From a virus (lineage: Duplodnaviria; Caudoviricetes), in the IMG/VR virus record IMGVR_UViG_2934563053_000002, positions 1-64,000 of that record: a stretch of 64,000 bases of DNA. One strand, given 5' to 3'. Below the pieces are notes generated by a model that saw only the letters and a program-made list of their open reading frames with translations, was not told the origin of the DNA and did not search any database. Position numbers and translations under genes: made by a program. Every line of letters starts with the position of its first letter. Position 1 is the first letter of the stretch. Shown here piece by piece: positions 6,512-47,619 of the stretch.

Positions 6512-6798
6512 CCGGACCCGAGCACTACCGCGAAGCCGAACAGCTCCTGTCCGACGCTTCCTACCAGCGTGACCGCAACGGACACCCGGTACGGAAGGAC
6601 GGCACCACCTTCCAGCCCGGCGAGCATGCGGCACTGATCGCCCGCGCTCAGGTGCACGCCACCCTCGCCCTCGCCGCCGCGACCGCCGCCCAGCTCGCGG
6701 ACCGCTACGTCGGCGACGGCGCCCACATCAACAACTGGCAGCCCGCCATCGGGTGGAAGCCCGAGCTGCCCAAGGAGGAGACCCCTCATGTCTTCTGA
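6508..6798 (+). CDS. Hypothetical phage protein
   Basis: MTGPEHYREAEQLL...AQVHATLALAAAT, a recurrent actinophage motif. Confidence 0.65.
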   Translation: MTGPEHYREAEQLLSDASYQRDRNGHPVRKDGTTFQPGEHAALIARAQVHATLALAAATAAQLADRYVGDGAHINNWQPAIGWKPELPKEETPHVF

Positions 6799-7789
6799 AC
6801 TCGTCAAGTCGCAGCCCGCCACCCCGGCGACGCTGCCCGAGAAGATGCAGTACGCGCAGGCCCTCGCCCAGTCCGGCATGCTGCCCAGCCAGTACCGCCA
6901 GCAGCCCGCCAACCTCCTCTACGCCCTGGAGTTCGCCGACTCCCTCGACCTCCACCCCATGGCCGCGATCACCGGCGTGCACGTCATCGAGGGCAAGCCG
7001 AGCGCCTCATCGTCGCTGATCTCCGCGCTGGTCCGGCGGGCCGGCCACAAGCTCCGCGTCCGGGGCGACGACACCAAGGCCGTCGCGCAGATCATCCGCA
7101 GCGACGACCCGGACTTCGTCTTCGAGTGCACCTGGACGATGGACCGCGCCCAGCAGGCCGGGCTCACCGGGAAGCAGACCTGGAAGAAGTACCCGGCCGC
7201 GATGCTTAAGGCCCGCGCGATCACCGAGGTTGCCCGCGAGGCGTGCGAAGAGGCCCTGTCCGGCATGCACTACACGCCGGAAGAGCTGGGCGCCCAGGTC
7301 GACGCCGAGGGCAACCCCATGGACGCCGAGGTGCAGCAGCTCCGCTCGGTGAAGCCGGGCGAGCCGGACCAGTGGCAGCAGCCCGCACCCCAGCAGGGAG
7401 AGCCCGACCGGGACTACGTTGCCGAGGCTCGGTCCGCCGGCGAAGCCGACGCCGTCCGCCGGATCTGGCAGGAGGCCAAGGCCGCCGGGCTGGACGACGT
7501 GAAGCTGGGCCACATCGCCGCGGTCGGCAAGAGCCTCGCCGCCGGGCCCCCGCCCGCCAAGCCGACCGAGCCCGAGACGGACACCGACGACGCCGTGGAC
7601 GGCGAGGTCGTCTCCGAGGAGGAGCAGGCCGCCCGCACAGCCGAACACGAGCTGCGCGACTGGGCCCAGGCCAACGGCCTCGACGACATCGCGGGCGACT
7701 TCGAGGGCGCCACCGGCATGCCGCTGGACCAGGCCCTCGCCCCCCAGATCCGCACCTTCCTCAACCAGCTCCGCGGCTCCGCGGCCTGA
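6788..7789 (+). CDS. RecT/Bet-like single-strand annealing recombinase
   Basis: LAQSGMLPSQYRQQPANLL...VIEGKP...WKKYPAAMLKARAI. Confidence 0.8.
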   Translation: MSSELVKSQPATPATLPEKMQYAQALAQSGMLPSQYRQQPANLLYALEFADSLDLHPMAAITGVHVIEGKPSASSSLISALVRRAGHKLRVRGDDTKAVAQIIRSDDPDFVFECTWTMDRAQQAGLTGKQTWKKYPAAMLKARAITEVAREACEEALSGMHYTPEELGAQVDAEGNPMDAEVQQLRSVKPGEPDQWQQPAPQQGEPDRDYVAEARSAGEADAVRRIWQEAKAAGLDDVKLGHIAAVGKSLAAGPPPAKPTEPETDTDDAVDGEVVSEEEQAARTAEHELRDWAQANGLDDIAGDFEGATGMPLDQALAPQIRTFLNQLRGSAA

Positions 7790-22665: not shown

Positions 22666-23063
22666 CCACCGACGAACGACGCAAGCGGTTCCGCACGGCG
22701 GTGTACCAGGCCATCGAGCGAGGAGACGACCCCGCCGACGCCGCCAAGGCCGTATCCGACCAGGCGCAGCACGAGACGGTGACACGCCTCCGCGACGAGC
22801 GTGACCGGGCCATCCGCATCGCCGTGGCCCTGGAGAACCAGCTCGCCGCCGTGCAGGAGTACGCGCGGCACAGCGACGACACCGCACCCCGCACCCGCGA
22901 AACCATCCTCCGCCTCACCGACGGCTACCAGCCCGACGCCAGCGCCCCACAGCACCTCGCCCGCGGCAGCAACGCCGAGAAGTGCCCCGCATGCGTGAGC
23001 ACCAGACGGTCGTATGTGCCCCTCCTCCTCTGCCCCGGACCCGACGACGGAGCCGCATCGTGA
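22662..23063 (+). CDS. Hypothetical protein
   Basis: AAGGAG RBS, GTGA coupling. Confidence 0.55.
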   Translation: MTTDERRKRFRTAVYQAIERGDDPADAAKAVSDQAQHETVTRLRDERDRAIRIAVALENQLAAVQEYARHSDDTAPRTRETILRLTDGYQPDASAPQHLARGSNAEKCPACVSTRRSYVPLLLCPGPDDGAAS

Positions 23064-23509
23064 CCGTGTCCCGGGAACTAAGCGAAACCGAACTGGCAGT
23101 CCTCCGCAGAACCGCGGACGGCGACACCTACAGCGAGATCGGCCACCACATCAACCTCACCACCAAGAGCGTGGCGAACGTAGCCACCCGCGTCATGCGC
23201 AAACTCGGCGCGGTCAGCATGCCCCACGCCGTCTACCTCGCCACCCGCACCGGACTCCTCGACGCCCCCCTCGACAACCCCCTGACCGCCCGGCAGCTCG
23301 AAGCGCTCCTTTGGACCGCCCTCGGCTACACCGCGCAACACGCCGCCGACCACATGGGCGTGTCCCTCGACACCGTCCGCTGGCTCCTCCGCACAACCCA
23401 CCACCGGCTCGGCGCCCGCACCGCCACCCACGCCGTCGCCCTCGCCATGGCCGCCGGCCTCATCACCCCAGCCCACATCACCACCCGGCGACAGGAACAC
23501 GCCGCATGA
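23060..23509 (+). CDS. Tandem LuxR-HTH regulator (two HTH domains, no sensor domain)
   Basis: LSETELAVLRR.ADG.TY.EIG...KLG and LTARQLEAL...ALG.T....A..MGVS.DTVR. Confidence 0.8.
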   Translation: MTVSRELSETELAVLRRTADGDTYSEIGHHINLTTKSVANVATRVMRKLGAVSMPHAVYLATRTGLLDAPLDNPLTARQLEALLWTALGYTAQHAADHMGVSLDTVRWLLRTTHHRLGARTATHAVALAMAAGLITPAHITTRRQEHAA

Positions 23510-24606
23510 CCAGCACCCCGCTCGCCCAGACCCGGGTTGAGCCCAGCCGGGCTCTCATCCGCGCGCTGCAACACCAGATCGAGCAGCTCGCCGACAGCAT
23601 CTCCGGCAAAAACGCCCACCGCACCGCAGCCGGCTGGGTGTACATGACCTGCGTCCACGCCTGGGCCGCCGACCACCACCTCATCGACGGCCGCCTCCAC
23701 CGCGACGCGCAGCCCGCGCGGCAGCAGTTCCTCACCCAAGGCGGCACCAACCTCGCCTGGCTCACCTACGCCGTCGCCGACACCGCCGTCCACCCCTGCG
23801 CCTGGACACTCCTCGACCCCGCCTACGACAACCCCGTCCGCCACGCCTCACCCAGCGACACCGCCGCCAGCCGCCTACTCGACTGGTGGGCCGAGGACGC
23901 CCCCGCCCTCGCCTACCCCGTCGACACTGGGCCCGGCACGATCACCGGCTGGATCCTCGGCGACCTCCTCCAACTCGTCACCGACGAACGCCGTCTCGCC
24001 CACGCCCTCGCCCAATCCCCCTGGTGGCTCGCCGACGGCATCCTCGACCGCACCCTCATCCCCGCCGCCCGCGACTTCCGCGACGAGACGCTCCGCCTGA
24101 TAGACCCCACCTGCGGCACCGGCCACTTCCTCATACGCGCCATCGACATGCTCTGGGAGCTGCACACCACCGGCAGTCTCGCCCCGCGGCAGATGCGCAT
24201 GGACGGCGTCACCAGCTGGACCCCCATACCCCCCGCCGAGGCGGCCCGCCGCATCCTCGCCGGCGTCGACGGCATCGAACTCGACCCCATCACGGAGGCG
24301 GTGTGTCGCCTGCGCGTCACCGTCTACCTCGCGCACCTGCTGCACGAGGCCGGCGCCCTGCCCGGACCGCTGCGCCTGGACGCGATACCGCACCGGCTGA
24401 TGCCCCGGATCAGCGTCGGCGACAGCCTCCTCGCGGGGAAGGTGTCCCGTGCCGAGTACGCCCGGCTGCGCCCTGCCCAAGCCCGCATCGTCAACCTCGG
24501 CACCGACGCACCCGCAGATGGCGAGGCTCCGGACGGGGAGACGGCCCCGATCCCCGTCGTGCTCCCCCAGGGCACCGAGCGCGAACAACTCGCGCTCTTC
24601 TCCTGA
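23506..24606 (+). CDS. N6-adenine methyltransferase-like protein resembling the N-terminal half of BREX-2 PglX; no NPPY motif
   Basis: LGDLLQ...HALAQSPWWLADGILDRTL.PA...LIDPTCGTGHFL, GIELDP, ISVGDSL; stops without motif IV. Confidence 0.75.
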   Translation: MTSTPLAQTRVEPSRALIRALQHQIEQLADSISGKNAHRTAAGWVYMTCVHAWAADHHLIDGRLHRDAQPARQQFLTQGGTNLAWLTYAVADTAVHPCAWTLLDPAYDNPVRHASPSDTAASRLLDWWAEDAPALAYPVDTGPGTITGWILGDLLQLVTDERRLAHALAQSPWWLADGILDRTLIPAARDFRDETLRLIDPTCGTGHFLIRAIDMLWELHTTGSLAPRQMRMDGVTSWTPIPPAEAARRILAGVDGIELDPITEAVCRLRVTVYLAHLLHEAGALPGPLRLDAIPHRLMPRISVGDSLLAGKVSRAEYARLRPAQARIVNLGTDAPADGEAPDGETAPIPVVLPQGTEREQLALFS

Positions 24607-24614
24607 CCCCCTCC

Positions 24615-24689
24615 GCCCGAGTCGCGCAACCGGAAGACGCACCCGCCTTAAAAGCGGACCCAGTGCCGGTTCGAATCCGGCCTCGGGCA
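24615..24689 (+). tRNA. tRNA-Leu(UAA), short variable arm, no encoded CCA
   Basis: Acceptor GCCCGAG/CTCGGGC with A73; D arm GCG-CAACCGGAAGA-CGC; anticodon loop CT-TAA-AA; T arm GCCGG-TTCGAAT-CCGGC. Confidence 0.85.
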
Positions 24690-24717
24690 CAACCCACACG
24701 ACGCTGAAGGGAACCCG

Positions 24718-25317
24718 ATGAACAACCCCGGCCCGAGCCCCGACTGCGGCGAGGGATGGGCCTTCGCCCGACGAGTACTCACCGACCCCGCCCGGCAGCG
24801 CGAGACGCTCGCCAGCCTCGACCGGGCTCTCGACGGCATCACGCCGACCCCTGTCCCCGACACCTTCCGCGCCCGCCAAGGAGCAGCCATGACCGACCCC
24901 ACCGTGACCGACCTGCTGCGCGAGCTGTACGAGTACGCGGGGCACGGCTACCACTGCGACAACGTGGCCCCCGAGACAGCCCAGACCTACGAGGAATGGC
25001 TGTCCGACACGGCCCACGACCGGCCCGCCGTAGCCGCCGCCAAACAGGCAGCGCGCGCCCAGCAGCCCCCGCCACCCGGTTCGACCCGCGAGCAGCTCCC
25101 CGACCACCTCCTCGCACTCATCGACGTGCCGCCGTACACCAGCACCGCATGTGAGACGGCCCACGAGTGCGAGCGCGTAGTCGACGTCCACACCGAGCAC
25201 GCCGAGGAACTCCGGACAGCGGCGGCCGGCCAGCTTCACGACCGGTGCCGCCGTAACAACAAGTTCACCGGCGTCACCTGCGGCTGCGCCTGCCACCAGG
25301 CGAAGGAGCAGCCGTGA
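24718..25317 (+). CDS. Hypothetical protein
   Basis: YTSTACET...H..CR.NNKFTG..C.C.CH. Confidence 0.55.
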   Translation: MNNPGPSPDCGEGWAFARRVLTDPARQRETLASLDRALDGITPTPVPDTFRARQGAAMTDPTVTDLLRELYEYAGHGYHCDNVAPETAQTYEEWLSDTAHDRPAVAAAKQAARAQQPPPPGSTREQLPDHLLALIDVPPYTSTACETAHECERVVDVHTEHAEELRTAAAGQLHDRCRRNNKFTGVTCGCACHQAKEQP

Positions 25318-25457
25318 CCCGCGTCTACCGGTGGCTGACCACCCCAGTCGCCGTGCCCCGCTGGGTACGCATCGGGGTCCTCACCGCATCCGCCTTGCAA
25401 TGCGCCGCCTGGCTACTCCAAGGGGCGACCTGGGCCCTCGCCCACCTCACCCGCTGA
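25314..25457 (+). CDS. 47-aa hydrophobic peptide
   Basis: AAGGAG RBS, GTGA coupling, one TM segment. Confidence 0.45.
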   Translation: MTRVYRWLTTPVAVPRWVRIGVLTASALQCAAWLLQGATWALAHLTR

Positions 25458-25749
25458 CCCCCTGCCCGGCCGTTGGGGTCGGCCGGGCAGGGGGTCACGG
25501 TTCAATAACGGAAGATTTGGCCGTGAGCGCGTGAAAGCGTAGGCAGCCCGTACTCAGAGCGTAGCCACAACACGCAACAGACCTCAGTTGGCCGAAGCCC
25601 TGACGCAGACCACCACGTCGAGCCCGCAGGCGAGCGATATGCTGCTCCTGCTTGATCTCCCTCGCACCAACTTGCCGCCCAGCGCTGTAAGTCGGCGGCG
25701 GCGAGCCCCCGGCCAACCACCGGGAGGTTCACCGAGGGAGGGAGAGCAC

Positions 25750-25881
25750 ATGGACGATGAAGAAATGGGCATGCCGCCGGAGCCGCCGTGGAGCAGCTTC
25801 GAGCGGTGGTCGATCATCCTCGCGATGTTAGGCGTGCTCATGGCAACCATCTCCGTGGTGGCGCAGTTCGCGATGCGGTAA
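25750..25881 (+). CDS. 43-aa single-TM peptide with an in-frame TTA codon
   Basis: GAGGGAG RBS; MDDEEMG...WSIILAMLGVLMATISVVAQF; TTA at 25828. Confidence 0.55.
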   Translation: MDDEEMGMPPEPPWSSFERWSIILAMLGVLMATISVVAQFAMR

Positions 25882-25968
25882 CCCACCGCACGCCCGGGAG
25901 CGACCGACAGCCGCTGCACACGCAGCGAGCCCGGTCTCTTGATAGGCGACCGGGCCCGTGAACTGCAA

Positions 25969-26005
25969 GAAGGGCCTGTCCTGGTGCCCGCCAGGCGGGC
26001 CCTTC
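25969..26005. terminator. Hairpin between convergent units
   Basis: GAAGGGCCTGTCCTGG...CCAGGCGGGCCCTTC. Confidence 0.55.
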
Positions 26006-26151
26006 GCCATGCCCAGCGTTCAAGGACTGTGCTACCCGTACTTGCTCGCGAGCATGTACCCAGACCATAGCACGGGCATTTGTGGGAATCATGAAAACAG
26101 TAAGCGAAAGCCGCAGGTCAGAACCACCGAACATCCCACCGGCTGGGCCGC

Positions 26152-27528
26152 TCAAGCTGGCAGGTTCCCGGCGAGGTACTCCATCGCGCGCTCATCCAGC
26201 TCTGCCGCACACCGCAACCCCCGAGCCCGGAACCGGCCCAAATCCCGCCGCATACCCCGCACCGCCTTCACCGTCCGCGCCGACCGCACACCCTCCATGT
26301 GATCCAGGGCCTGATGCCACGTCGCGCACGCCTGCTCGATCCCACCCCGCTTGAGCTGCATCTCCGCACTCGCCACCAGATCGAGCGCCACGATCCGCGC
26401 ATACGTCCCGGACGGCCGCGCGCCGGCCGCCCGGCCGTACTGCTCAGCCGCCGCCCGGTGATCGCCCAACGTCTCGTGGACCTTCGCCGCCCGCGAATAC
26501 ACCGACGCAGCCGGCGGCCCCCACGCCATACCCCAGAACGGCACCTCATCGCCAGGCGCGTCCTCCAGCATGCGACGCGCCCGCTCGGCCTCGACCAGTG
26601 CTGTGCGCCGCTGGCCGGACTTCGCCAGCGTGTGGGCGTGGACGATGCGGAACAGCGCCTCCGTCCGCGAGTCGACCCGCCCCTTGGCCCGGTTCAGTCC
26701 CGTCTCCGCCAGCCCAAGACAGTGCTCCGGCCGACGCAACTTCAGCCCCTGCATCGCCATCGTCCGCATCACGAACCCGTCATGCCCGACCAGCCCGGAC
26801 TCCTCGGCGAGCCTGAACGACTGAAGGTAGTACCGCTGCGCAACACCCTGCTGCCCGGCGTCATACGCCTTCCAGCCCAGCAGATGCACACCACGGGAAG
26901 CCGCAGACAGCATCTGCTGGCGCGCCTCCTCAGTGCGGAACCGGGCCCGGCACAACGGCGCCACATCGTCCCGCAGATACTGCACGAGCGCCGTCCGACC
27001 GTGCTGCCCACCATGCCGCTCGTCCATATCCGAGAACATGCCGATCATGTCGCGGACCGCGGCGACCTCGACCATGCCGACAACAGTGCCGGAGCGCGCC
27101 GCGACCGTGCGCTCCGCGGCGTCTCTCACGGAGGCCAGCGGGAGAGCAGCGGCGGCCACCGAGTAGGCGGACGATGCGAGGAGGCGGCGTCGGTCCACTT
27201 CGTTCCTCCACAGCGGTAGCAGCACATCGATCGGATCGGGCCCCAACGTGAGTCCGACGTCCTCATCCTCCTCCGGCCAGTCGAGGCCGATATCGGCCGG
27301 GGCCAGCAGCCGGCCCAGCAGCCGAGACAAGGCCACCGCCAAGTACCGGGCCGTCATAGCCGACGGGAGGGTCCCGGCGACCCAGTGCGCGATCGCTGAC
27401 TTGTTCGTCCGCAGATGGTCCCCGCACTCGGCAGCCACGGCGCGTACCGCGCGAGCCACCGCATCGTAGGGCAGACCGGACTCCTCAATGACGTCTCTGA
27501 GCTGGGTGTTCGGCTTCCGCGTGGTCAT
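26152..27528 (-). CDS. Streptomyces HTH-TPR (NsdA-like) transcriptional regulator
   Basis: KPNTQLR...NKSAIAHWVAG..P, DRRRLL, DERHGGQHGR, GWKAYDAG...AQRYY. Confidence 0.85.
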   Translation of the reverse strand: MTTRKPNTQLRDVIEESGLPYDAVARAVRAVAAECGDHLRTNKSAIAHWVAGTLPSAMTARYLAVALSRLLGRLLAPADIGLDWPEEDEDVGLTLGPDPIDVLLPLWRNEVDRRRLLASSAYSVAAAALPLASVRDAAERTVAARSGTVVGMVEVAAVRDMIGMFSDMDERHGGQHGRTALVQYLRDDVAPLCRARFRTEEARQQMLSAASRGVHLLGWKAYDAGQQGVAQRYYLQSFRLAEESGLVGHDGFVMRTMAMQGLKLRRPEHCLGLAETGLNRAKGRVDSRTEALFRIVHAHTLAKSGQRRTALVEAERARRMLEDAPGDEVPFWGMAWGPPAASVYSRAAKVHETLGDHRAAAEQYGRAAGARPSGTYARIVALDLVASAEMQLKRGGIEQACATWHQALDHMEGVRSARTVKAVRGMRRDLGRFRARGLRCAAELDERAMEYLAGNLPA

Positions 27529-27658
27529 GCAGCTCCTGCCGTTAAACCGGATAAACCACGTGCCCGCTCGTAACCGTACCCACGGACAGCCCACGGGAGT
27601 TCACTGTTCGTCAGGCCCCCGCACCAGCGGGTGGCGCAACCTCAGGGAGGGAACACCC

Positions 27659-27973
27659 ATGACGACCGCGATCACCCCCACCGCGCAAGCGGACCCGCTC
27701 GCCCCGCGCCTGCTGCCGGGCGTCGGCGCGCTGTCCCACTCGACTGCCGCCCCCAGCACGGGGGCAACCCGCCCGTTCGGGCTGACCTGCACCACACCCC
27801 TCGCCGGCAACGCCGCCGCCGCGTCCCTCGACGGCCTCACCTACGACCCGCAGCGCCAGGTCAACGTCCACCACGACGGTGCCCCTCTCTCCAGGGACGA
27901 CCTGATGCTCCACGCCGGCACGAGCCAGAACACCCAGGCCGACCACCAGTGGTGGACCGACAAGGACCAGTGA
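27659..27973 (+). CDS. ATP-grasp-modified RiPP (graspetide) precursor, TgmA-like
   Basis: GGGAGG RBS; leader RPFGL and YDPQRQV; core TSQNTQADHQWWTDKDQ. Confidence 0.85.
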   Translation: MTTAITPTAQADPLAPRLLPGVGALSHSTAAPSTGATRPFGLTCTTPLAGNAAAASLDGLTYDPQRQVNVHHDGAPLSRDDLMLHAGTSQNTQADHQWWTDKDQ

Positions 27974-27979
27974 TATCCG

Positions 27980-28948
27980 ATGCCTGCTTCTGTCGCGATC
28001 ATCACCCGTGATCAGGACACAGCCGCCGACCTCGTCGTCCACGAACTACGCAAGCGCGACGCGGTCATCTACCGGTTCGACCTGGCCGACTTCCCCACCC
28101 GGATGACCCAGGCCGCCTACCTGATCCCCGGCCGCGCCCGCTGGACCGGAGCGCTCAAGGGGCAGCACCGCGACGTGGACCTCTCCGGACTGACAGCCGT
28201 CTGGTACCGCAAACCGTCCACCTTCCGGCTGCACCAGGGCATGTCTGCGACAGAGCAGGAGTGGGCGGCCACCGAAGCCCGAGCCGGCTTCGGTGGCCAG
28301 CTCGCCGCCCTCCCAGGCGTCCGCTGGATCAACCACCCGCACCGCAACGCCGAGGCCGACCACAAGCCGCTCCAGCTCGCCCGCGCCGACGCCTGCGGAC
28401 TCGCCGTCCCCGAGTCGCTGCTGACCAACGACCCCGACGCAGCCCGCGCGTTCTGCCACGCGCACCACGACACCGGGGTGATCTACAAACCGCTGCATGG
28501 TGGCCCCGCAAACGAGAACGGCCAGCCAGTCGCCCTCTGGGCAACCAGCGTCACCGCCGACGACATCACCGACGGAGTGGCCCGCAGCAGCCACCTCTTC
28601 CAGGCTCGGATCCCCTGCGCCTACGCGGTCCGACTCACCGTCGTCGGCGAGCAGATGTTCGCTGTCCGTATCGACGCCCCCGAGGACTCCGCAGCCGTCG
28701 ACTGGCGACAGGATCACGACCAGCTCCGCTACACCCCCATCGACGTGCCCGACGATGTGGCCGCGGGGACGCGCCAACTCTTGCAGTCCTTCGGCCTCAC
28801 CTACGCAGCCATCGACTGGGTCGTGACCCCCGACGGCCAGTGGACGTTTATCGGAGACCTGAACCCGAACGGGCAATGGGGCTGGATCCAGGCGCACACG
28901 GGCCTGCCGATCGCCGCTGCCATCGCCGACGAACTCGCCCGGGAGTAG
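27980..28948 (+). CDS. ATP-grasp ribosomal peptide maturase (TgmB/MvdC-like)
   Basis: D.AADLV, RFDLADFP, VWYRKP, HKPLQL..A...GL.VP.SL.TND, YKP, FQ, RLTVVG, DWR, LNPNGQW. Confidence 0.93.
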   Translation: MPASVAIITRDQDTAADLVVHELRKRDAVIYRFDLADFPTRMTQAAYLIPGRARWTGALKGQHRDVDLSGLTAVWYRKPSTFRLHQGMSATEQEWAATEARAGFGGQLAALPGVRWINHPHRNAEADHKPLQLARADACGLAVPESLLTNDPDAARAFCHAHHDTGVIYKPLHGGPANENGQPVALWATSVTADDITDGVARSSHLFQARIPCAYAVRLTVVGEQMFAVRIDAPEDSAAVDWRQDHDQLRYTPIDVPDDVAAGTRQLLQSFGLTYAAIDWVVTPDGQWTFIGDLNPNGQWGWIQAHTGLPIAAAIADELARE

Positions 28949-28950
28949 CC

Positions 28951-30075
28951 GTGACCATCGCCGCCGACCACTCCGAACAGTTGCGTCACCGCCTCGTCGA
29001 CCAGCTCGTCGACCGCGGATACCTGCACGACTCCCGCTGGATTGCTGCGTTCCGCGCGGTACCGCGGGAAGCGTTCGTGACGCGATACAAGGTGCTCTCA
29101 CCGGACGGCACCCACCAACACCACGACCTCGCCGACCCCGAACACCTCGACGACGCCTTGGCCGTCGCGTACTCCGACGCGCCCCTCATCACGCAGACCG
29201 ACGCGTGTGGCACGCCGACGTCGTCGAGTACGGCCCCCAGTCTGATGGCGCTCATGCTCGAAGCCCTCCAGGCGGAGCCCGGCATGAGGGTGCTGGAGAT
29301 CGGTACTGGTACCGGCTACAACGCGGCGTTGCTCTCACACGCTCTCGGGGCCGAGGCGGTCACCACAGTCGACATCGACCCAGCCCTCACAGCCGCGGCG
29401 GAGGAGGCGCTGCACCGAGTCGGCTACCGCCCAACGGTGGCCGGCCGAGTTGCAGGCCACCGGGAGCGGGGGCCGTATGACCGGCTGATCGCCACATGCG
29501 GAGTCGCACGAGTCCCCACGGCTTGGCTGGAGCAGTTGCGGCCCGGCGGTTTGGTCCTGGTTAACATCGGGTTCGGTCTCGTGCGCCTCACGGTCGGGGC
29601 CGACGGCACGGCGACCGGCAGGTTCCTGGACTACGCCAGCTTCATGCAGGCCCGCGAGGACACCGCCACCCAGGCGGCCACCGCTCGTGACGCACTCGCC
29701 CTCACCGACCGCTCCGCGCCCCGCACCGACGCTGTGTTCCCGGATTGCCTCGACGAGCGGCCGTTCGTGTTCCTGCGCTCGGTGATGATGCCGGGCGTCC
29801 ACCAGGTCGTCGAACATCTTCCGGACGGGCCGGAGTACGTCCTCGCGGATCACGCCAGCGGTTCATGGACACGGGCCCGACGGTGTGGCAGGGGCGCCGC
29901 TGTCGCTCAGGGCGGGCCGCGTCGGCTGTGGGATGAGCTGTGCAAGGTGGCCGCTTCCTGGAGTGCGCATCACCGGCCGCCGTTGTCTTCGTATGGACTG
30001 ACCGTGTATCCGGACGGACGGCATGTGCTCTGGCTTGGCAGCCCAGATGGGCCGTCCTGGCCGCTGTCTGGCTGA
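28951..30075 (+). CDS. PIMT-like O-methyltransferase with C-terminal extension (TgmC-like, aspartimide-forming type)
   Basis: AFRAVPRE.F, TSSSTAP, VLEIGTGTGYNAALL, PYDRLIAT, QGGPRRLWD, YGLTV. Confidence 0.92.
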   Translation: MTIAADHSEQLRHRLVDQLVDRGYLHDSRWIAAFRAVPREAFVTRYKVLSPDGTHQHHDLADPEHLDDALAVAYSDAPLITQTDACGTPTSSSTAPSLMALMLEALQAEPGMRVLEIGTGTGYNAALLSHALGAEAVTTVDIDPALTAAAEEALHRVGYRPTVAGRVAGHRERGPYDRLIATCGVARVPTAWLEQLRPGGLVLVNIGFGLVRLTVGADGTATGRFLDYASFMQAREDTATQAATARDALALTDRSAPRTDAVFPDCLDERPFVFLRSVMMPGVHQVVEHLPDGPEYVLADHASGSWTRARRCGRGAAVAQGGPRRLWDELCKVAASWSAHHRPPLSSYGLTVYPDGRHVLWLGSPDGPSWPLSG

Positions 30076-30088
30076 CCGCATACGACGA

Positions 30089-30112
30089 CGCCCCGCCCAA
30101 CCGGGCGGGGCG
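30089..30112. terminator. Terminator hairpin closing the RiPP operon
   Basis: CGCCCCGCCC-AACC-GGGCGGGGCG. Confidence 0.7.
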
Positions 30113-30139
30113 CTCACACGTGGCGCGGGACGAGCGCGG

Positions 30140-30403
30140 TCACACGGCGGACGCCAACTGCTCCCACATCCACGGCGTGTGGGTGGTGTGGCGCCGCTGG
30201 CGTCCGCAGGTGCGACAGTGCGTCGGTCGCCAGCGCGCCTGCGGGGTGAAGGTGTGGAGCGGCTTGAGCCAGTGGCCTTCGGCTTGCAGGTGGTCGCCCC
30301 GGTGCTGGCCGCAGCGGTCGCAGATCCAGTAGCCGTCCGAGCCGTCTGGCTGGACCGGGCCTTCACGGAACCAGTGGTCCGTGACCAACGGCCGGGCAGT
30401 CAC
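30140..30403 (-). CDS. Small tandem Zn-finger protein
   Basis: Two H.F...CxxCG....H units. Confidence 0.55.
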   Translation of the reverse strand: MTARPLVTDHWFREGPVQPDGSDGYWICDRCGQHRGDHLQAEGHWLKPLHTFTPQARWRPTHCRTCGRQRRHTTHTPWMWEQLASAV

Positions 30404-30810
30404 GGCCGCCACTCCTCGTAGTAGTCGGGGTGGTCCGCGTAAGCGGAGGCCAGATCGCGGCAGGCGTCCCAGTAGGCGGCGCGAAGCGAGCTGAGGGACC
30501 GGGCGGGCTCCTTTTCCGCCTCGAACGTCTCACGGTCAAGCTGCATGTGTTCCTCGCACTTGCTCACGATTCGCCGCTTGGCGTCGACCTCGGCGAGGAC
30601 CCGGGCCGGATCATGCCGGGCGATGTGGGTGGCGGCATAGGGCCAAGTGCGGCGGACGACACCCACGCCACTCGCTGCGCGGACCTCGCTACCGTCGGAG
30701 TCGGTCACGTTCCACGAAGCCCCGTGAGGTTCACGCGTGGCAGCGTGTTTCGCGGCCTGTGCGTCTTCGTCGAGCCGCTCCCGCAGGAACGCCACCAGGT
30801 CAACCGTCAT
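30400..30810 (-). CDS. DUF6221-family protein
   Basis: DLVAFLRERLDED...HIARHDPARVLAEVDAKRRI...LASAYADHPDY.EEWRP. Confidence 0.88.
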   Translation of the reverse strand: MTVDLVAFLRERLDEDAQAAKHAATREPHGASWNVTDSDGSEVRAASGVGVVRRTWPYAATHIARHDPARVLAEVDAKRRIVSKCEEHMQLDRETFEAEKEPARSLSSLRAAYWDACRDLASAYADHPDYYEEWRP

Positions 30811-41598: not shown

Positions 41599-43152
41599 GT
41601 GACCGACACCGCGGCCCGCACCCGCGGCCAATACCTAGCCGGGCACACGGCCGAAACCTTCGACCTCCACGCCTACCTCGCACAGCACCCCGACCGGCTC
41701 CTGGAGGAGCCGGAAGGCCGCCGCGTGCTCACCCGCCTGGACCCGCTGCTGTTCGGGCTGCTCTACCTCCGCCACCACCTCAAGGACAGCGAAGGTGCGA
41801 TCACGTTCTCCGACGCGCACCTCGACTGGTGCCGCGCCGCCCGCGACTGGGTCCGCCCCGTCACCGCGCCGGGCGCCGAGCGGGACGCGTGGGTCGCGCC
41901 GCGGAACACCGGCAAGAGCACATGGTGGTTCTTGATCCTGCCGATGTGGGCCGCCGCCCACGGACACGTGAAGTTCACCGCCGCGTTCGCCTCGTCGGCG
42001 ACGCAGGCGGAGACACACCTCGGCACGTTCAAGCGGGAGGTCGACACCAACGCGGCGCTCCGCCGCGACTACCCCGAACTGTGCAAGCCCGCCAAGCGGC
42101 CCTCCGGTGCGAACGTCGGCGACACCCAGTCGATCTACATCGCGTCGTCGGGCTTCGTGTTCGCGGGCAAGGGCATCGACTCCAGCAACCTCGGCATGAA
42201 GGTCGGCGAGATCCGGCCCGACCTCATCCTGTGCGACGACATCGAACCGGACGAGGCGTCGTACTCGGTCGACTTGGCGGCGAAGCGGCGGTCGACGCTG
42301 ATCGATTCGATCCTGCCGCTCAACGTGTATGCCCGGGTGGTCATCTCGGGCACCGTCACGATGCCGGGCAGCATCGTGCACCAGCTCGTGAAGCACGGCC
42401 GCGGCGTGGAGACCGCGGACTGGGTGCGGGAGGAGGGGTTCCGCGCGCACTACAGTGCGCCGATCGTGCGGCGGGACGATGGCACCGAGCGGTCACTGTG
42501 GCCGGCGAAGTGGCCGCTCGCCTACCTGAAGTCGATCGAGCACACGCGGTCGTTCGCGAAGAACTATGCCAACGACCCGCTCGGCTCCGACGGCGACCTG
42601 TGGACAGTGGACGACTTCCGCTACCCGGGCGCCGACGGGCCGGACCCGGTCACGCACATGATGCTCAGCATCGACCCCGCGGTCACCACGAAGAAGGGCT
42701 CGGACTTCACGGGGCTGGCCGTCGTGAGCTGGTCGGCGGAGCGGCGGCGCTGCACGGTGTGGGACGCGCAGGCCGTGAAGATCCCACCCGGCCCCGCGTT
42801 GCGGGAGAAGGTGTTGGCCCTGCTCGACGAGTACCCGCAGATCGGTCTCGTCCTGGTGGAGGTCAACCAGGGCGGCGACGTCTGGCAGGCGATCTTGCAT
42901 CACCTACCAGTGCGGTTGAAGACCATCGCGCAGGCCGAGAAGAAGTTCACCCGCGCCGAGGCCGTACTCAACGACTACCAGCGCGGAAGGGTCATCCACG
43001 CGCGGAAGCTCCGCGAGTTGGAGGAGCAGATGTGCGCCTTCCCCAAGGCCCCGCATGACGACCTCGTCGATGCTGCCGGGTCGGGAGTGAGAAGATTCCT
43101 CCCCACCAAACCGAAGCAGGTTTCGAAGGCGTCAAGCGCCAGTTACCTTTGA
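41599..43152 (+). CDS. terL: Terminase large subunit
   Basis: APRNTGKST Walker A, LILCDDIE Walker B, SIDPA, EVNQGG, FPKAPHDDLVDA. Confidence 0.95.
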   Translation: MTDTAARTRGQYLAGHTAETFDLHAYLAQHPDRLLEEPEGRRVLTRLDPLLFGLLYLRHHLKDSEGAITFSDAHLDWCRAARDWVRPVTAPGAERDAWVAPRNTGKSTWWFLILPMWAAAHGHVKFTAAFASSATQAETHLGTFKREVDTNAALRRDYPELCKPAKRPSGANVGDTQSIYIASSGFVFAGKGIDSSNLGMKVGEIRPDLILCDDIEPDEASYSVDLAAKRRSTLIDSILPLNVYARVVISGTVTMPGSIVHQLVKHGRGVETADWVREEGFRAHYSAPIVRRDDGTERSLWPAKWPLAYLKSIEHTRSFAKNYANDPLGSDGDLWTVDDFRYPGADGPDPVTHMMLSIDPAVTTKKGSDFTGLAVVSWSAERRRCTVWDAQAVKIPPGPALREKVLALLDEYPQIGLVLVEVNQGGDVWQAILHHLPVRLKTIAQAEKKFTRAEAVLNDYQRGRVIHARKLRELEEQMCAFPKAPHDDLVDAAGSGVRRFLPTKPKQVSKASSASYL

Positions 43153-43200: not shown

Positions 43201-44751
43201 GTGGGCTCACCAGACCTCATGCACGGCATAGCCGAACTCGAAGCCGCTCGCGCCCCCTACGTCGAAGCCGAGAACATGTACCGCGGCACCGTCGAGGAGG
43301 TCTTCGCTTCCGCCCGCCTCCAACGCGCGCTGGAGCAGTCCGGCATCAACTTCCGGCTGAACTTCGCCAAGACCCCCGTCAACGCCGTCGTGGACCGCTT
43401 GGAGATCGCGTCGATCACCGGGACCGACGACGCACACACACGGCTGATCAGCCAGGTGTGGAAAGACAACGAACTAGACCTCGAAGCTCCAGACCTCCAC
43501 CGGAAGGCGTGCTACTTCGGCGACGCCTACCTAATCGAAGTCCCAGTCGAGGACGACAACGGCCAGGTCATCGGCGTCGAGATGCACTACAACTCGCCGC
43601 TCACCGTGCGGGCCATCTACTCGCAGGAGAACCCCCGCGTCGTCGACTACTACATCAAGCACTGGACCGAGCGCACCAGCCTCGGCCAGATCCAGCGAGC
43701 CGAGCTGTACTACGACGACCGCACCGAACGCTGGACCACCAAGCCCGGCGCGAAAGGCGAGCAAGCGGCCGACTGGGTGCACTGGACCGCGGCCCCCGAG
43801 GACGACGAACCCGAGGACGAGGACTCGTGGACAATCCCGAACCCCCACGGGCAGATGGTCTTCCACTTCCGCACCGAGCGCCCATTCGGAGTCCCCGAGC
43901 ACTTCGACGCCTACGGCCCGCAGAACGCGATCAACAAGCTGGCCATCTCCCAGATGTCGACCATCGACTTCCAGATCGCACCCCAGCGCTACGCCATCAC
44001 GGACTCCGCCACCACCGACACCAGCGATGTGGAGCCCGGAGACTTCGACGACTTCCCCCCAGACGATGCCACCGACGGGCCCACCGACACCGGCGACGAC
44101 TCCAGCCTCAAGGCCGGGCCTGGAGAAGTGTGGCTGCTCCGCGGCTATAAGGCGGTCGGCCAGCTCGACCCGGCGAAACCCGAGGTGTTCCTGAACCCGT
44201 TGACGTTCGAGGTCCGCGCCATGTCGCAGATCACCACCACCCCCCTGTACCTCTTCGACACCGAGGGCGGGCAGGAGATCAGCGGCGAGTCGCGGCGACA
44301 GAAGGACGCCGCGTTCGTCAAGAAGATCCGCAACCGGCAGATGTCGTTCGGCGCGACCTGGCGGGCAGTGTTCACCTTCGCGCTCAAGCTCCTCGGCTAC
44401 CCCGACGCCACAGTCGACGTGCGCTGGGCGCCTGCCGCCACCGTCGAGGACAAGACCGGGTGGGAGACCACCGGCCTCAAGGTCGAGAACGGAGTGCCCC
44501 GGCGGCAGGCTCTGCTGGAGGCGGGCTACCGGGAGGAGCAGGTCGACGACTGGCTTACTGGTGTGGACGAGGCCGAGCTGGAGCGCCGCGTCACGATCCT
44601 CGCCACTTTGGCGGACAGCGCCCAGAAGCTCGGCAGCGCGGCTGCGCTCGGCGTCGTCACCACCGGCCAGGTCCAGGGCTTGCTGGCCGGGGCGCTGTCC
44701 GATGTGGAGCTGCTGGCGCCGGAGACGGAGACGGAGACGGCTGATGCCTGA
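43201..44751 (+). CDS. Portal protein (SPP1 gp6-like)
   Basis: NFAKTPVNAVVDRL, FGDAY, FG.PE, SGESRR; follows terL. Confidence 0.9.
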   Translation: MGSPDLMHGIAELEAARAPYVEAENMYRGTVEEVFASARLQRALEQSGINFRLNFAKTPVNAVVDRLEIASITGTDDAHTRLISQVWKDNELDLEAPDLHRKACYFGDAYLIEVPVEDDNGQVIGVEMHYNSPLTVRAIYSQENPRVVDYYIKHWTERTSLGQIQRAELYYDDRTERWTTKPGAKGEQAADWVHWTAAPEDDEPEDEDSWTIPNPHGQMVFHFRTERPFGVPEHFDAYGPQNAINKLAISQMSTIDFQIAPQRYAITDSATTDTSDVEPGDFDDFPPDDATDGPTDTGDDSSLKAGPGEVWLLRGYKAVGQLDPAKPEVFLNPLTFEVRAMSQITTTPLYLFDTEGGQEISGESRRQKDAAFVKKIRNRQMSFGATWRAVFTFALKLLGYPDATVDVRWAPAATVEDKTGWETTGLKVENGVPRRQALLEAGYREEQVDDWLTGVDEAELERRVTILATLADSAQKLGSAAALGVVTTGQVQGLLAGALSDVELLAPETETETADA

Positions 44752-46701: not shown

Positions 46702-47619
46702 GTGGCACGCAACACCTTCGAGTCCTGGATCCCGGAAGAGTACGACTCCCAGGTCATCCAGCGCGTCACCCAGATGTCCGCGGTCGAGGCGCTCGCCTCC
46801 CCGGTACCGATGTCGTCCGACTCCAAGTCGATCCCGCGGTCCGCGGGCGTCGGCGTCAGCCTCGTCGACAAGGGCGGCGCCTACTCCGAGGACACGTCCT
46901 CCAACGACGACATCACCCTGACGGCCAAGAAGTTCGGCAAGGCCATCCGCATCGCCGAGGAGGACATCGACGACTCCCTCGCGAACATCATCTCGACCAA
47001 GCAGGTCGACTGGGCCACGTCATACGCCAAGTTCATCGACAACGCCACCCTGGCGGTCAACGCCGCGCCGGGCTCGGGCGTGCCGTTCACCTCGGTGTAC
47101 TACCAGCTCACGCAGGCCGCCTCCGGTCTCGGGTACGGCGCCAACGACAACGTGACCGTAGCCGCCTCTGCGGGCGTCACCTACGACGACCTGTCCGACG
47201 TGATGTCCGCCGTCGAGGGCGGCGACTACTTCGACCTGTCCCGCACCGTCGTCATCGCGCACCCCTCCTTCCGCGGCACCCTGCGGAAGATCAAGGACGA
47301 CCAGAGCATGCCCGTCTTCGTCCGCGGCCAGCAGGGCGACGCCGGCAGCCCCGACACCCTGTTCGACCTGCCGGTCCAGTGGAGCCTCGGCGCGAAGGCA
47401 CACGCCACCGCGACGGACGCACCCACGGGTGCACCGCTGCTGTTCGTCATCAACCGCGACTTCCTCCGGCTCGGCATCCGGTCCGGCCCCGAGAGCATCT
47501 TCATCGACGGCCGCGACGGACTGTCCGCGCTGACGGACGAGTCGATCCTCAAGATGCGCTCGCGCAGGGGCTTCGCCCTCGGCCACCCCAAGGCCGCGGC
47601 TGTCCTGGTCGGTGTCTGA
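46702..47619 (+). CDS. Major capsid protein (HK97 fold)
   Basis: WIPEEY, ITLTAKKFG.A..IAEEDIDDS, R.RRGFA; AGGAGG RBS. Confidence 0.9.
   Translation: MARNTFESWIPEEYDSQVIQRVTQMSAVEALASPVPMSSDSKSIPRSAGVGVSLVDKGGAYSEDTSSNDDITLTAKKFGKAIRIAEEDIDDSLANIISTKQVDWATSYAKFIDNATLAVNAAPGSGVPFTSVYYQLTQAASGLGYGANDNVTVAASAGVTYDDLSDVMSAVEGGDYFDLSRTVVIAHPSFRGTLRKIKDDQSMPVFVRGQQGDAGSPDTLFDLPVQWSLGAKAHATATDAPTGAPLLFVINRDFLRLGIRSGPESIFIDGRDGLSALTDESILKMRSRRGFALGHPKAAAVLVGV

Follow-up and report, generated by a model that had tools for sequence, protein, structure and literature searches.

Graspimiditides are peptides made by the ribosome and then modified after translation (RiPPs), and they are defined by a three-gene signature (Choi et al., bioRxiv 10.1101/2023.06.21.545981). 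In the Group 13 graspetides albusimiditide (S. albus J1074), amycolimiditide and fuscimiditide, genes for a precursor, a SAV_5884-type ATP-grasp ligase and an O-methyltransferase of the protein isoaspartyl methyltransferase (PIMT) type lie adjacent to one another. The core peptides of the class are laid out as a Thr/Ser stem, a loop with a conserved Asp-Xaa and a stem of Asp/Glu; the residues reported at position n+1 include His, and fuscimiditide and amycolimiditide are described with equal donor and acceptor spacing (Choi et al., 10.1101/2023.06.21.545981). According to a 2026 review, the chief challenge still facing work on aspartimidylated RiPPs is to find out what they do biologically (PMC13001092). 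Here we describe a locus of this kind in 64,000 nucleotides of viral DNA, hereafter the window, which comprises bases 1-64000 of the 78,454-bp IMG/VR record IMGVR_UViG_2934563053_000002, classed as a provirus (CheckV 87%). The locus is best explained, with a probability of roughly 70%, as a cargo island of a prophage that carries a graspimiditide operon together with a regulator gating the operon. The chemistry is of a known kind, and the cluster is a genuine and complete example of a RiPP class already described. Its novelty lies in the setting as swap-in prophage cargo with a regulator of the NsdA family, the enrichment of this family at graspimiditide operons, and the finding that the closest relatives of the regulator flank operons for aspartimidylated lasso peptides.

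The operon is encoded on the plus strand and all its genes are intact, which agrees with the complete graspimiditide-type cluster proposed in the original prediction; precursor, ligase and methyltransferase each matched their families. The precursor gene (27659-27973) encodes 104 amino acids (aa) and matched TIGR04186 with 30.4 bits (cut-off 25) and PF14404 with 18.7 bits, the latter below the cut-off. The ribosome-binding site AGGGAGGG (27644-27651) sits 8 nt ahead of the precursor ATG, and this start is borne out by the alignment with 17 homologues. The gene is followed after 6 nt by that of an ATP-grasp peptide maturase of the SAV_5884 subfamily (27980-28948), which matched TIGR04187 with 396 bits (cut-off 350) and contains the pre-ATP-grasp domain PF21068; 400 homologues of this protein were found, the best of them outside the window being 80% identical. 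Two nucleotides separate the ligase stop codon from the GTG start of a 374-aa PIMT-type O-methyltransferase (28951-30075) with the RiPP-specific C-terminal extension. The methyltransferase matched PF01135 with 102.6 bits (cut-off 20.3) and phrog_13505 with 289 bits, and its translation contains a GTGTG glycine motif. Full-length families for this type of methyltransferase, as well as for the type of the neighbouring regulator, are present in PHROGs. A SAV_5884-type ATP-grasp gene beside a precursor gene, a PIMT-homologous O-methyltransferase in the same operon and the expected precursor layout make it highly probable that the cluster is a graspimiditide biosynthetic gene cluster (BGC).

We aligned the precursor with 17 others, taken from loci at which the ligase shares 45-61% identity with that of the window (18 sequences in total). 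G41, G74, P76 and D95 are invariant in this alignment, and Q67, T92 and Q97 are nearly so, T92 and Q97 being conserved in at least 90% of the sequences; T88, D101 and D103 recur in the closest relatives. The leader carries the shared motifs RPFGL and YDPxxQ, and the core is predicted to span approximately residues 85-104 (27911-27970, plus strand). Like those of the class, this core shows a Thr/Ser stem, a loop with a conserved Asp-Xaa and an Asp-rich stem. Read against the class description of Choi et al., T88 and T92 are the predicted donors, D101 and D103 the predicted acceptors, and D95-H96 the putative aspartimide site. In the proposed pathway, the ATP-grasp ligase would bind the leader of the 104-aa precursor and form side-chain ester cross-links in the C-terminal core, with T92-D101 and T88-D103 as the predicted pairs. 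The PIMT-type methyltransferase would next methylate the invariant loop residue D95, and the methyl ester would collapse into an aspartimide with H96. The window core is short, with two predicted esters, whereas albusimiditide has four according to the abstract of Choi et al., and it differs from the characterised graspimiditides in having Asp-His as the predicted imide site and in its donor/acceptor spacing, which is taken up below. The ligase is 40-47% identical to those of the bulk of Streptomyces graspimiditide loci and 57-66% identical to those of a small group that includes Pseudonocardiales. The window cluster further differs in sitting on a prophage and in being accompanied by a regulator, neither of which is mentioned for graspimiditide BGCs in the literature searched.

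The cluster is part of a 4.76-kb cargo island (25318-30077), delimited by blastn, tblastn and boundary alignments against a sister prophage. This prophage (L107) was the one related provirus returned by an IMG/VR scan with the phage gene at 23506-24606, whose product is 88% identical in the two. Twenty window proteins (11.9-36.7 kb) have homologues in L107, and the gene order is kept; identity is 82-98% for 13 of these proteins and 40-77% for the rest, and both flanks of the island are syntenic with L107 at 74-94% nucleotide identity. Neither blastn nor tblastn gave a match for the regulator, precursor, ligase or methyltransferase in the 21-kb L107 locus, and no TIGR04187 match was detected anywhere in the 90-kb L107 record; one NsdA-family gene is present elsewhere in this record, close to one of its ends. 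Nucleotide homology stops sharply at the stop codon of gene 24718-25317 and restarts equally sharply at about 30078, and in the place of the 4.76-kb island L107 holds 1.13 kb of unrelated small open reading frames (ORFs). Because L107 lacks exactly 25318-30077, the regulator and the operon constitute one cargo island in a variable slot. Besides the four cassette genes, the island holds just two small unannotated ORFs, so that neither a protease nor a transporter gene is found within 25318-30077, as had been noted before. With a G+C content of 0.690, the island lies slightly under its flanks (0.713-0.714). No direct or inverted repeat at either edge exceeds 9-10 nt, and the edges show no transposon-like signature.

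A GC-rich hairpin with a 12-bp stem (30087-30115) lies between the methyltransferase gene and a convergent minus-strand gene (30140-30412). It folds at -36.6 kcal/mol over 61 nt (z -3.57), and 0 of 200 shuffled sequences folded as well. Some 44 nt that include the hairpin are shared without a mismatch by the island-less L107. The hairpin is therefore part of the phage backbone, and the variable slot has its right edge there. A simple terminator scan returned nothing after the operon, since the hairpin is not followed by a T-run. The terminator that had been proposed to close the operon thus exists as a structure folding beyond its shuffles, but it lacks a T-run and is a property of the backbone rather than of the cassette.

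The phage nature of the surroundings is evident from PHROG profiles and from the 88 genes called with a codon model trained on the window's own long ORFs. The profiles identified RecT (6788-7789), the large terminase (41599-43152), the portal (43201-44751) and the major head protein (46702-47619); a 1745-aa ORF stands at the tape-measure position among the called genes, and a tyrosine integrase is encoded at 77708-78211 of the record. Together with the classification of the record as a provirus, these genes uphold the location between early and late phage genes that had been proposed for the cluster. Among the matches listed, the portal shares 32-39% identity with its counterparts in cultured Streptomyces phages, and megablast of 15500-40400 against cultured phages returned no match; hence no cultured sister phage is available. 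A moron is characterised by conserved backbone genes on either side and by its absence from a close phage relative, as seen for this island, and we have little doubt that it is cargo in a genuine prophage. On the preferred explanation, the island sits in a variable slot of a temperate Streptomyces siphovirus-type prophage, carries two linked units, and is a moron swapped by recombination at the conserved backbone edges rather than a core phage function. We lean towards a product that benefits the lysogen, in which the operon is presumably expressed, and that is either kept inside the cell or released on lysis.

The second unit of the island is a regulator gene on the minus strand (26152-27528), divergent from the operon, which encodes a 458-aa protein with an N-terminal XRE-type helix-turn-helix (HTH) and an all-helical solenoid resembling tetratricopeptide repeats (TPR). 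The protein matched NF053720 with 377 bits (cut-off 75) over model positions 1-432 of 432, and also the phage regulator family phrog_10886 with 235 bits. The divergent NsdA-like HTH-TPR regulator of the original prediction is accordingly present; the end given there, 27594, corresponds to an upstream GTG in the same frame, and the gene is taken here to end at 27528. NsdA and NsdB of Streptomyces coelicolor share the NF053720 superfamily model and the arrangement of an HTH with TPR-like repeats, and NsdA is a repressor of differentiation and antibiotic production. The window regulator falls below both equivalog cut-offs (71 bits against 830 for NsdA, 75 bits against 700 for NsdB) and is not an equivalog of either.

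The two units diverge from a control region of 130 bp (27529-27658), in which three elements can be discerned: a tandem repeat (27541-27557), a TACGGT-type element (27573-27580) and a 17-nt conserved box (27599-27615). The same elements occur in identical order ahead of the 12 displayed homologous regulators, regardless of the neighbouring gene, and the tandem repeat (8-9 nt) stands just before the regulator ribosome-binding site throughout the regulator clade (loci L192-L219 compared). Since the elements are common to the clade whatever the neighbour, the greater part of the 130-bp spacer is control sequence belonging to the regulator itself; therefore the operon promoter must overlap it. As judged from sequence conservation, the three elements may act as promoter/operator and form a candidate autoregulatory operator. 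Inverted repeats were also considered as operators in this region; their arms reach only 9 nt and they were not accepted. The NsdA-family regulator would thus bring its own conserved promoter/leader region, which would overlap the operon promoter region within the 130 bp. This overlap makes gating of the operon by a cluster-situated regulator the most likely arrangement, and control of the operon by the regulator appears somewhat more probable than its absence.

The association of NsdA-family genes with graspimiditide operons extends well beyond the window. From 561 ligase relatives, each species being represented by one genome, we took the best 80 and added 20 IMG/VR and 80 metagenome loci; a profile built iteratively from the window regulator was then run against them with 100 bits as the threshold. 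Loci were counted when they contained a methyltransferase and at least 3.5 kb of upstream sequence, and an NsdA-like ORF was scored when it ended within 3.5 kb upstream of the ligase; loci were dropped when they gave no methyltransferase match (7 genomic, 8 IMG/VR, 34 metagenome) or had too little upstream sequence. An NsdA-like ORF was present in 26 of 65 genomic loci (17 divergent, 9 co-directional), in 3 of 8 from IMG/VR and in 3 of 10 from metagenomes, and 31 of the 32 linked ORFs, the window's included, matched NF053720. Five genomes of 6.1-9.3 Mb contain 27-47 matches to this family each, so that about 1.6% would be expected by chance per 3.5 kb against the 40% observed, a 26-fold excess with a binomial tail of 6e-30, a figure that ignores relatedness. 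NsdA-family genes are therefore strongly enriched beside graspimiditide operons. The 32 linked regulators fall into 21 similarity groups, which argues that the link does not go back to one inherited event.

Several observations weigh against the reading of a graspimiditide operon gated by its neighbouring regulator. On the biosynthetic side, the methyltransferase aligned to TIGR04188 over positions 1-363 of 363 with 340 bits, below the cut-off of 380, and the predicted donors are spaced by 3 residues and the acceptors by 1, unlike the equal spacing in fuscimiditide and amycolimiditide. Because of this unequal spacing, the cross-link map is uncertain and should be taken as a prediction only. 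On the regulatory side, a consensus scan found 0 sigma-70-like promoters. About 60% of the graspimiditide loci are without an NsdA-like regulator, and so are L007, L008, L011, L012 and L014, the nearest relatives by ATP-grasp for which 10 kb of upstream sequence is present. Distances among regulators and ligases correlate weakly (Spearman 0.12, with 102 of 2000 permutations as high). In a reverse search, 214 of 401 Streptomyces genomes had a regulator match at E <= 1e-50, and the 30 best loci (58-77% identity) were inspected with 1.5-kb flanks; 0 of these 30 had a precursor, ligase or methyltransferase homologue in the flanks, or 0 of 29 when a locus from an unpublished genome (L197, genome G140) was set aside. 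The mirror-tree comparison, tried as a sign of co-evolution, was discarded as giving no useful support. As the closest ATP-grasp relatives lack an NsdA-like neighbour, the pairing in the island may be evolutionarily recent, and the regulator is still likely to be cluster-situated.

Some of these observations feed the explanation that survives best beside the preferred one, in which two unrelated passengers share the island: the regulator would act on host genes, as NsdA-type regulators of development and antibiotic production do, and the RiPP operon would be silent or independently controlled cargo. The lack of graspimiditide genes in the flanks of the closest regulator homologues, the retention of the upstream motifs whatever gene adjoins and the weak co-divergence all fit this explanation. 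It is further in keeping with the cultured temperate Streptomyces phages SV1 (gp24), ToastyFinz, Raleigh, Ponzi, Tubberson and SoJo, which carry an NsdA-family gene and no graspetide genes; SV1 gp24 scored 422 bits on NF053720. Against it stand the 26-fold enrichment of the family beside graspimiditide operons, which extends over many regulator subgroups, the divergence of the two genes from just 130 bp, and the gain or loss of both units together relative to the sister phage L107. We consider a chance cohabitation of this sort unlikely. In SV1, the one of these loci that was opened, the full-length regulator gene gp24 lies right after the lysis genes and is divergent from gp25 (L003 3440-5344), whose product is weakly similar to RsbA-type anti-sigma factors (37 bits, below the cut-off).

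The flanks of the 30 nearest regulator homologues were occupied by other kinds of genes. Seven of the loci adjoin hydratase- or aldehyde-dehydrogenase-like ORFs, named by eye from their translations, and five have a small divergent ORF matching the lasso leader model NF033521. When three of these five were extended, two (L222 and L224) revealed a full lasso operon and the third (L223) only a precursor-like ORF. The two operons (L224 139-4379; L222 5835-9854) consist of a precursor, a macrolactam cyclase (NF033561, 343-363 bits), a PqqD-type B1, a B2 and a PIMT-like methyltransferase, and they are divergent from regulators 73-77% identical to that of the window. The closest graspimiditide-linked regulator in the sample (L023), by comparison, is just 45% identical to it. 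The predicted lasso core has Asp-Thr-Ala-Asp (DTAD) at positions 6-9, the motif that is the hallmark of aspartimidylated lasso peptides (2026 review, PMC13001092). Because such DTAD lasso operons adjoin them, the nearest relatives of the window regulator are tied to a different aspartimide RiPP scaffold. The lassimiditide BGCs of the cellulonodin-2 and lihuanodin type resemble the window in the PIMT-type aspartimidylation of a RiPP and differ from it in scaffold and maturases; the lasso-linked methyltransferases score 96-110 bits on TIGR04188, the window's 340.

Methyltransferases of the TIGR04188 type are also carried by cultured phages. Alderaan, PapayaSalad, Bioscum, Ididsumtinwong and Austintatious encode proteins that scored 329-337 bits on this model and are 37-45% identical to the window methyltransferase. 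In the two loci that were opened, Alderaan (L001 3747-5149) and PapayaSalad (L002 3810-5149), the methyltransferase has immediately upstream of it an ORF of 48-69 aa, rich in Gly/Ser/Asp, which contains an Asp-Gly site and lacks a leader, and the cassette stands between the lysis genes and the integrase/immunity region. By sequence, the cassette looks like one for a candidate phage-encoded aspartimide peptide, an imiditide-like derivative made with a methyltransferase only. Grouped here with the imiditides and type I pamtides, these Austintatiousvirus cassettes share with the window a TIGR04188-type methyltransferase, an upstream peptide gene and a cargo slot in a temperate phage, and they differ from it in having neither an ATP-grasp gene nor a leader-bearing precursor. 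The divergent regulator of PapayaSalad, gp52, is an XRE HTH protein whose NsdA-like C-terminus reaches just 21.9 bits against the cut-off of 75.

These cassettes bear on the possibility that the island is a lysogenic-conversion effector, the product acting on proteins, either as a protease inhibitor like other graspetides or as an electrophilic trap, and thereby altering host proteolysis or shielding the lysogen, for instance from competitors or from phages that superinfect. A variable cargo slot is typical of conversion and defence genes, and the occurrence in cultured temperate Streptomyces phages of this methyltransferase type with a small peptide gene between lysis genes and immunity/integrase region points in the same direction, as does the listing of covalent trapping and immunity-type roles among the open hypotheses for aspartimides (2026 review, PMC13001092). 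The PADLOC 2.0 profiles, however, gave 0 families for regulator, precursor and ligase, and for the methyltransferase only mad2 (47 bits), a match confined to the S-adenosylmethionine (SAM)-binding domain at residues 94-206; the defence effector considered in the original prediction is so far unsupported, this generic SAM-domain match being all that the cassette produced. Nor does the island contain a target gene, an immunity gene or an exporter, and bioactivity of the class is absent from the excerpted text of the 2026 review (PMC13001092). We regard such an effector role as quite unlikely.

AimR-AimP, the arbitrium system, pairs an HTH-TPR receptor with a peptide gene on a temperate phage. 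The island resembles such RRNPP modules in that an HTH-TPR protein is encoded beside a peptide gene on a temperate phage, which raises the question of whether the regulator is an intracellular receptor of the mature or precursor peptide, tuning lysogeny, induction or host development, a ligand role that the original prediction put forward and that is so far unsupported. Modelled with AlphaFold2 from 61 sequences, the regulator has a mean predicted local distance difference test score (pLDDT) of 91.6 and a predicted TM-score (pTM) of 0.87; it consists entirely of helices, with an N-terminal DNA-binding part and a long helical-repeat solenoid. This receptor-like HTH and TPR solenoid, modelled with high confidence, is compatible with ligand sensing and carries no specific support for it. 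A peptide gene directly adjoins the regulator, and NsdA-family genes pair repeatedly with two aspartimide-RiPP scaffolds, the graspimiditides and the DTAD lasso precursors. Peptide-binding TPR proteins, namely kinesin light chain with cargo peptides, RapH and the pLS20 Rap with Phr*, are also among the structural matches, and adjacent propeptide and receptor genes are the arrangement of RRNPP systems (PMC10075063).

The structural matches are generic, however: the top Foldseek matches in the PDB were TPR proteins of a general kind, namely consensus TPRs made by design, kinesin light chain and OGT, with RapH at rank 19 (E 4.3e-3), the pLS20 Rap-Phr* complex at rank 48 and query-normalised TM-scores of 0.24-0.39, and a PDB sequence profile of the regulator gave only separate HTH_XRE and TPR matches. 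RRNPP pairs are described for Firmicutes (PMC10075063). In contrast to their peptides, that of the window is predicted to be heavily modified and has no obvious secretion signal, and no specific sequence or fold affinity of the regulator to RRNPP receptors emerged from these comparisons. Given further that no signal sequence was seen by eye in the precursor and the island is without an exporter, that about 60% of graspimiditide loci do without a regulator, that regulator homologues adjoin catabolic-looking genes in 7 of 30 loci and that 27-47 family matches per genome suggest general regulators, we consider signalling through the peptide very unlikely.

A broader idea is that NsdA-type regulators are dedicated sensors or controllers of aspartimide RiPPs on several scaffolds, namely graspimiditides, lassimiditides and the methyltransferase-only peptides of cultured phages, and that temperate actinophages have captured such modules to read or set a peptide signal for lysogeny or host development. 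We consider this very unlikely. If true, it would give aspartimidylated RiPPs a first biological role. The locus also has practical value. Because the cluster is complete, comes with a regulator and sits on a prophage for which nature supplies a sister without the island, it lends itself to clean genetics on the function of the class, in which lysogens with and without the island are comparable for induction, superinfection, development and competition. The link to the regulator could guide the activation of silent clusters, with NsdA-family genes standing beside 40% of the sampled graspimiditide operons and nearest relatives beside DTAD-type lasso operons. Carriage by a phage shows that the graspimiditide RiPP class moves horizontally as cargo.

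Neither carriage by a phage nor the link to the regulator appeared in the sources consulted. Literature searches for graspetides with prophages and for phage-encoded RiPP clusters yielded no description of a phage-borne graspetide cluster, and searches for NsdA with ATP-grasp, graspetide or RiPP yielded no mention of NsdA in the 12 best-ranked of 147 papers. The terms phage, regulator, transcription, TPR and helix-turn-helix are absent from Choi et al. (10.1101/2023.06.21.545981), and phage and regulator are absent from the 2026 review (PMC13001092), the pamtide paper (PMC10787088) and the imiditide preprint. Makarova et al. (PMC8939145), in which the term phage is absent, list HTH-DUF5753 regulators, which for the most part go with the actinobacterial ATP-grasp branch, and include an unexplained 'TPR-repeats containing protein' cluster among the ATP-grasp-associated families. 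The survey by Dragos et al. reports one Streptomyces phage with a type 3 polyketide synthase.

We also looked for relatives of the ligase in other phages and proviruses. No related ATP-grasp was found in cultured actinophages, and the only two matches in cultured phages were to a Leptospira phage and a faecal phage (28-31% identity). In IMG/VR, a scan with the ligase as a single protein returned nothing, and the relatives described here come from an alignment-based scan. After exclusion of five matches at 27-29%, 15 records (L086-L100) contain a ligase 39-57% identical to that of the window, and in 13 of them it lies within 5 kb of a record end. Such end-located ligases could be host flank; either the clusters often stand at prophage borders or provirus boundaries have been drawn through clusters. 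One record, L089, a 51.6-kb contig labelled 'linear' in IMG/VR (CheckV 100%), has a graspimiditide cassette in its interior, and its ORFs matched polynucleotide kinase, phosphoesterase, HNH, primase, helicase, exonuclease, DNA methyltransferase and ParB. It was considered as a second phage example and is not counted as a proven phage, 0 of 20 scanned ORFs being structural and the phrog_38 terminase being absent.

The neighbours of the island include, on the right, a minus-strand gene for a DUF6221 protein (30400-30810, phrog_6326), convergent with the RiPP operon. On the left, the early region encodes on the plus strand a LuxR/GerE-type HTH protein (23060-23509) and a 366-aa phage protein (23506-24606) directly upstream of a tRNA gene. 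The 366-aa protein matched the N-terminal quarter of the bacteriophage exclusion (BREX) methyltransferase PglX (PDLC02529, 107 bits, profile positions 56-328 of 1189) and, weakly, a phage DNA methyltransferase family; it is 88% conserved in the sister prophage L107 and, from its sequence, could be a truncated methyltransferase or a decoy. The tRNA gene (24615-24690, plus strand) is for tRNA-Leu with anticodon UAA, a bldA-type tRNA that reads the rare TTA codon; its stretch falls within an alignment to L107 at 90% identity, and it was the only significant hit in an Rfam scan of 24500-30500. The left part of the island contains a strong plus-strand hairpin with a perfect 18-bp stem (25451-25500; -49.6 kcal/mol, z -4.77, 0 of 200 shuffles as good), which also appeared in the Rfam scan as a weak palindromic match on both strands and is possibly the terminator of the upstream early genes. 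Downstream of it, a small hydrophobic ORF on the plus strand (25750-25881) encodes 43 aa, or 97 aa from an alternative TTG start at 25588. This ORF, doubtful as a real gene, has a codon-model score of 13.6 and no match in PHROG or PADLOC, and of all 88 genes called it alone contains a TTA codon, a single one.

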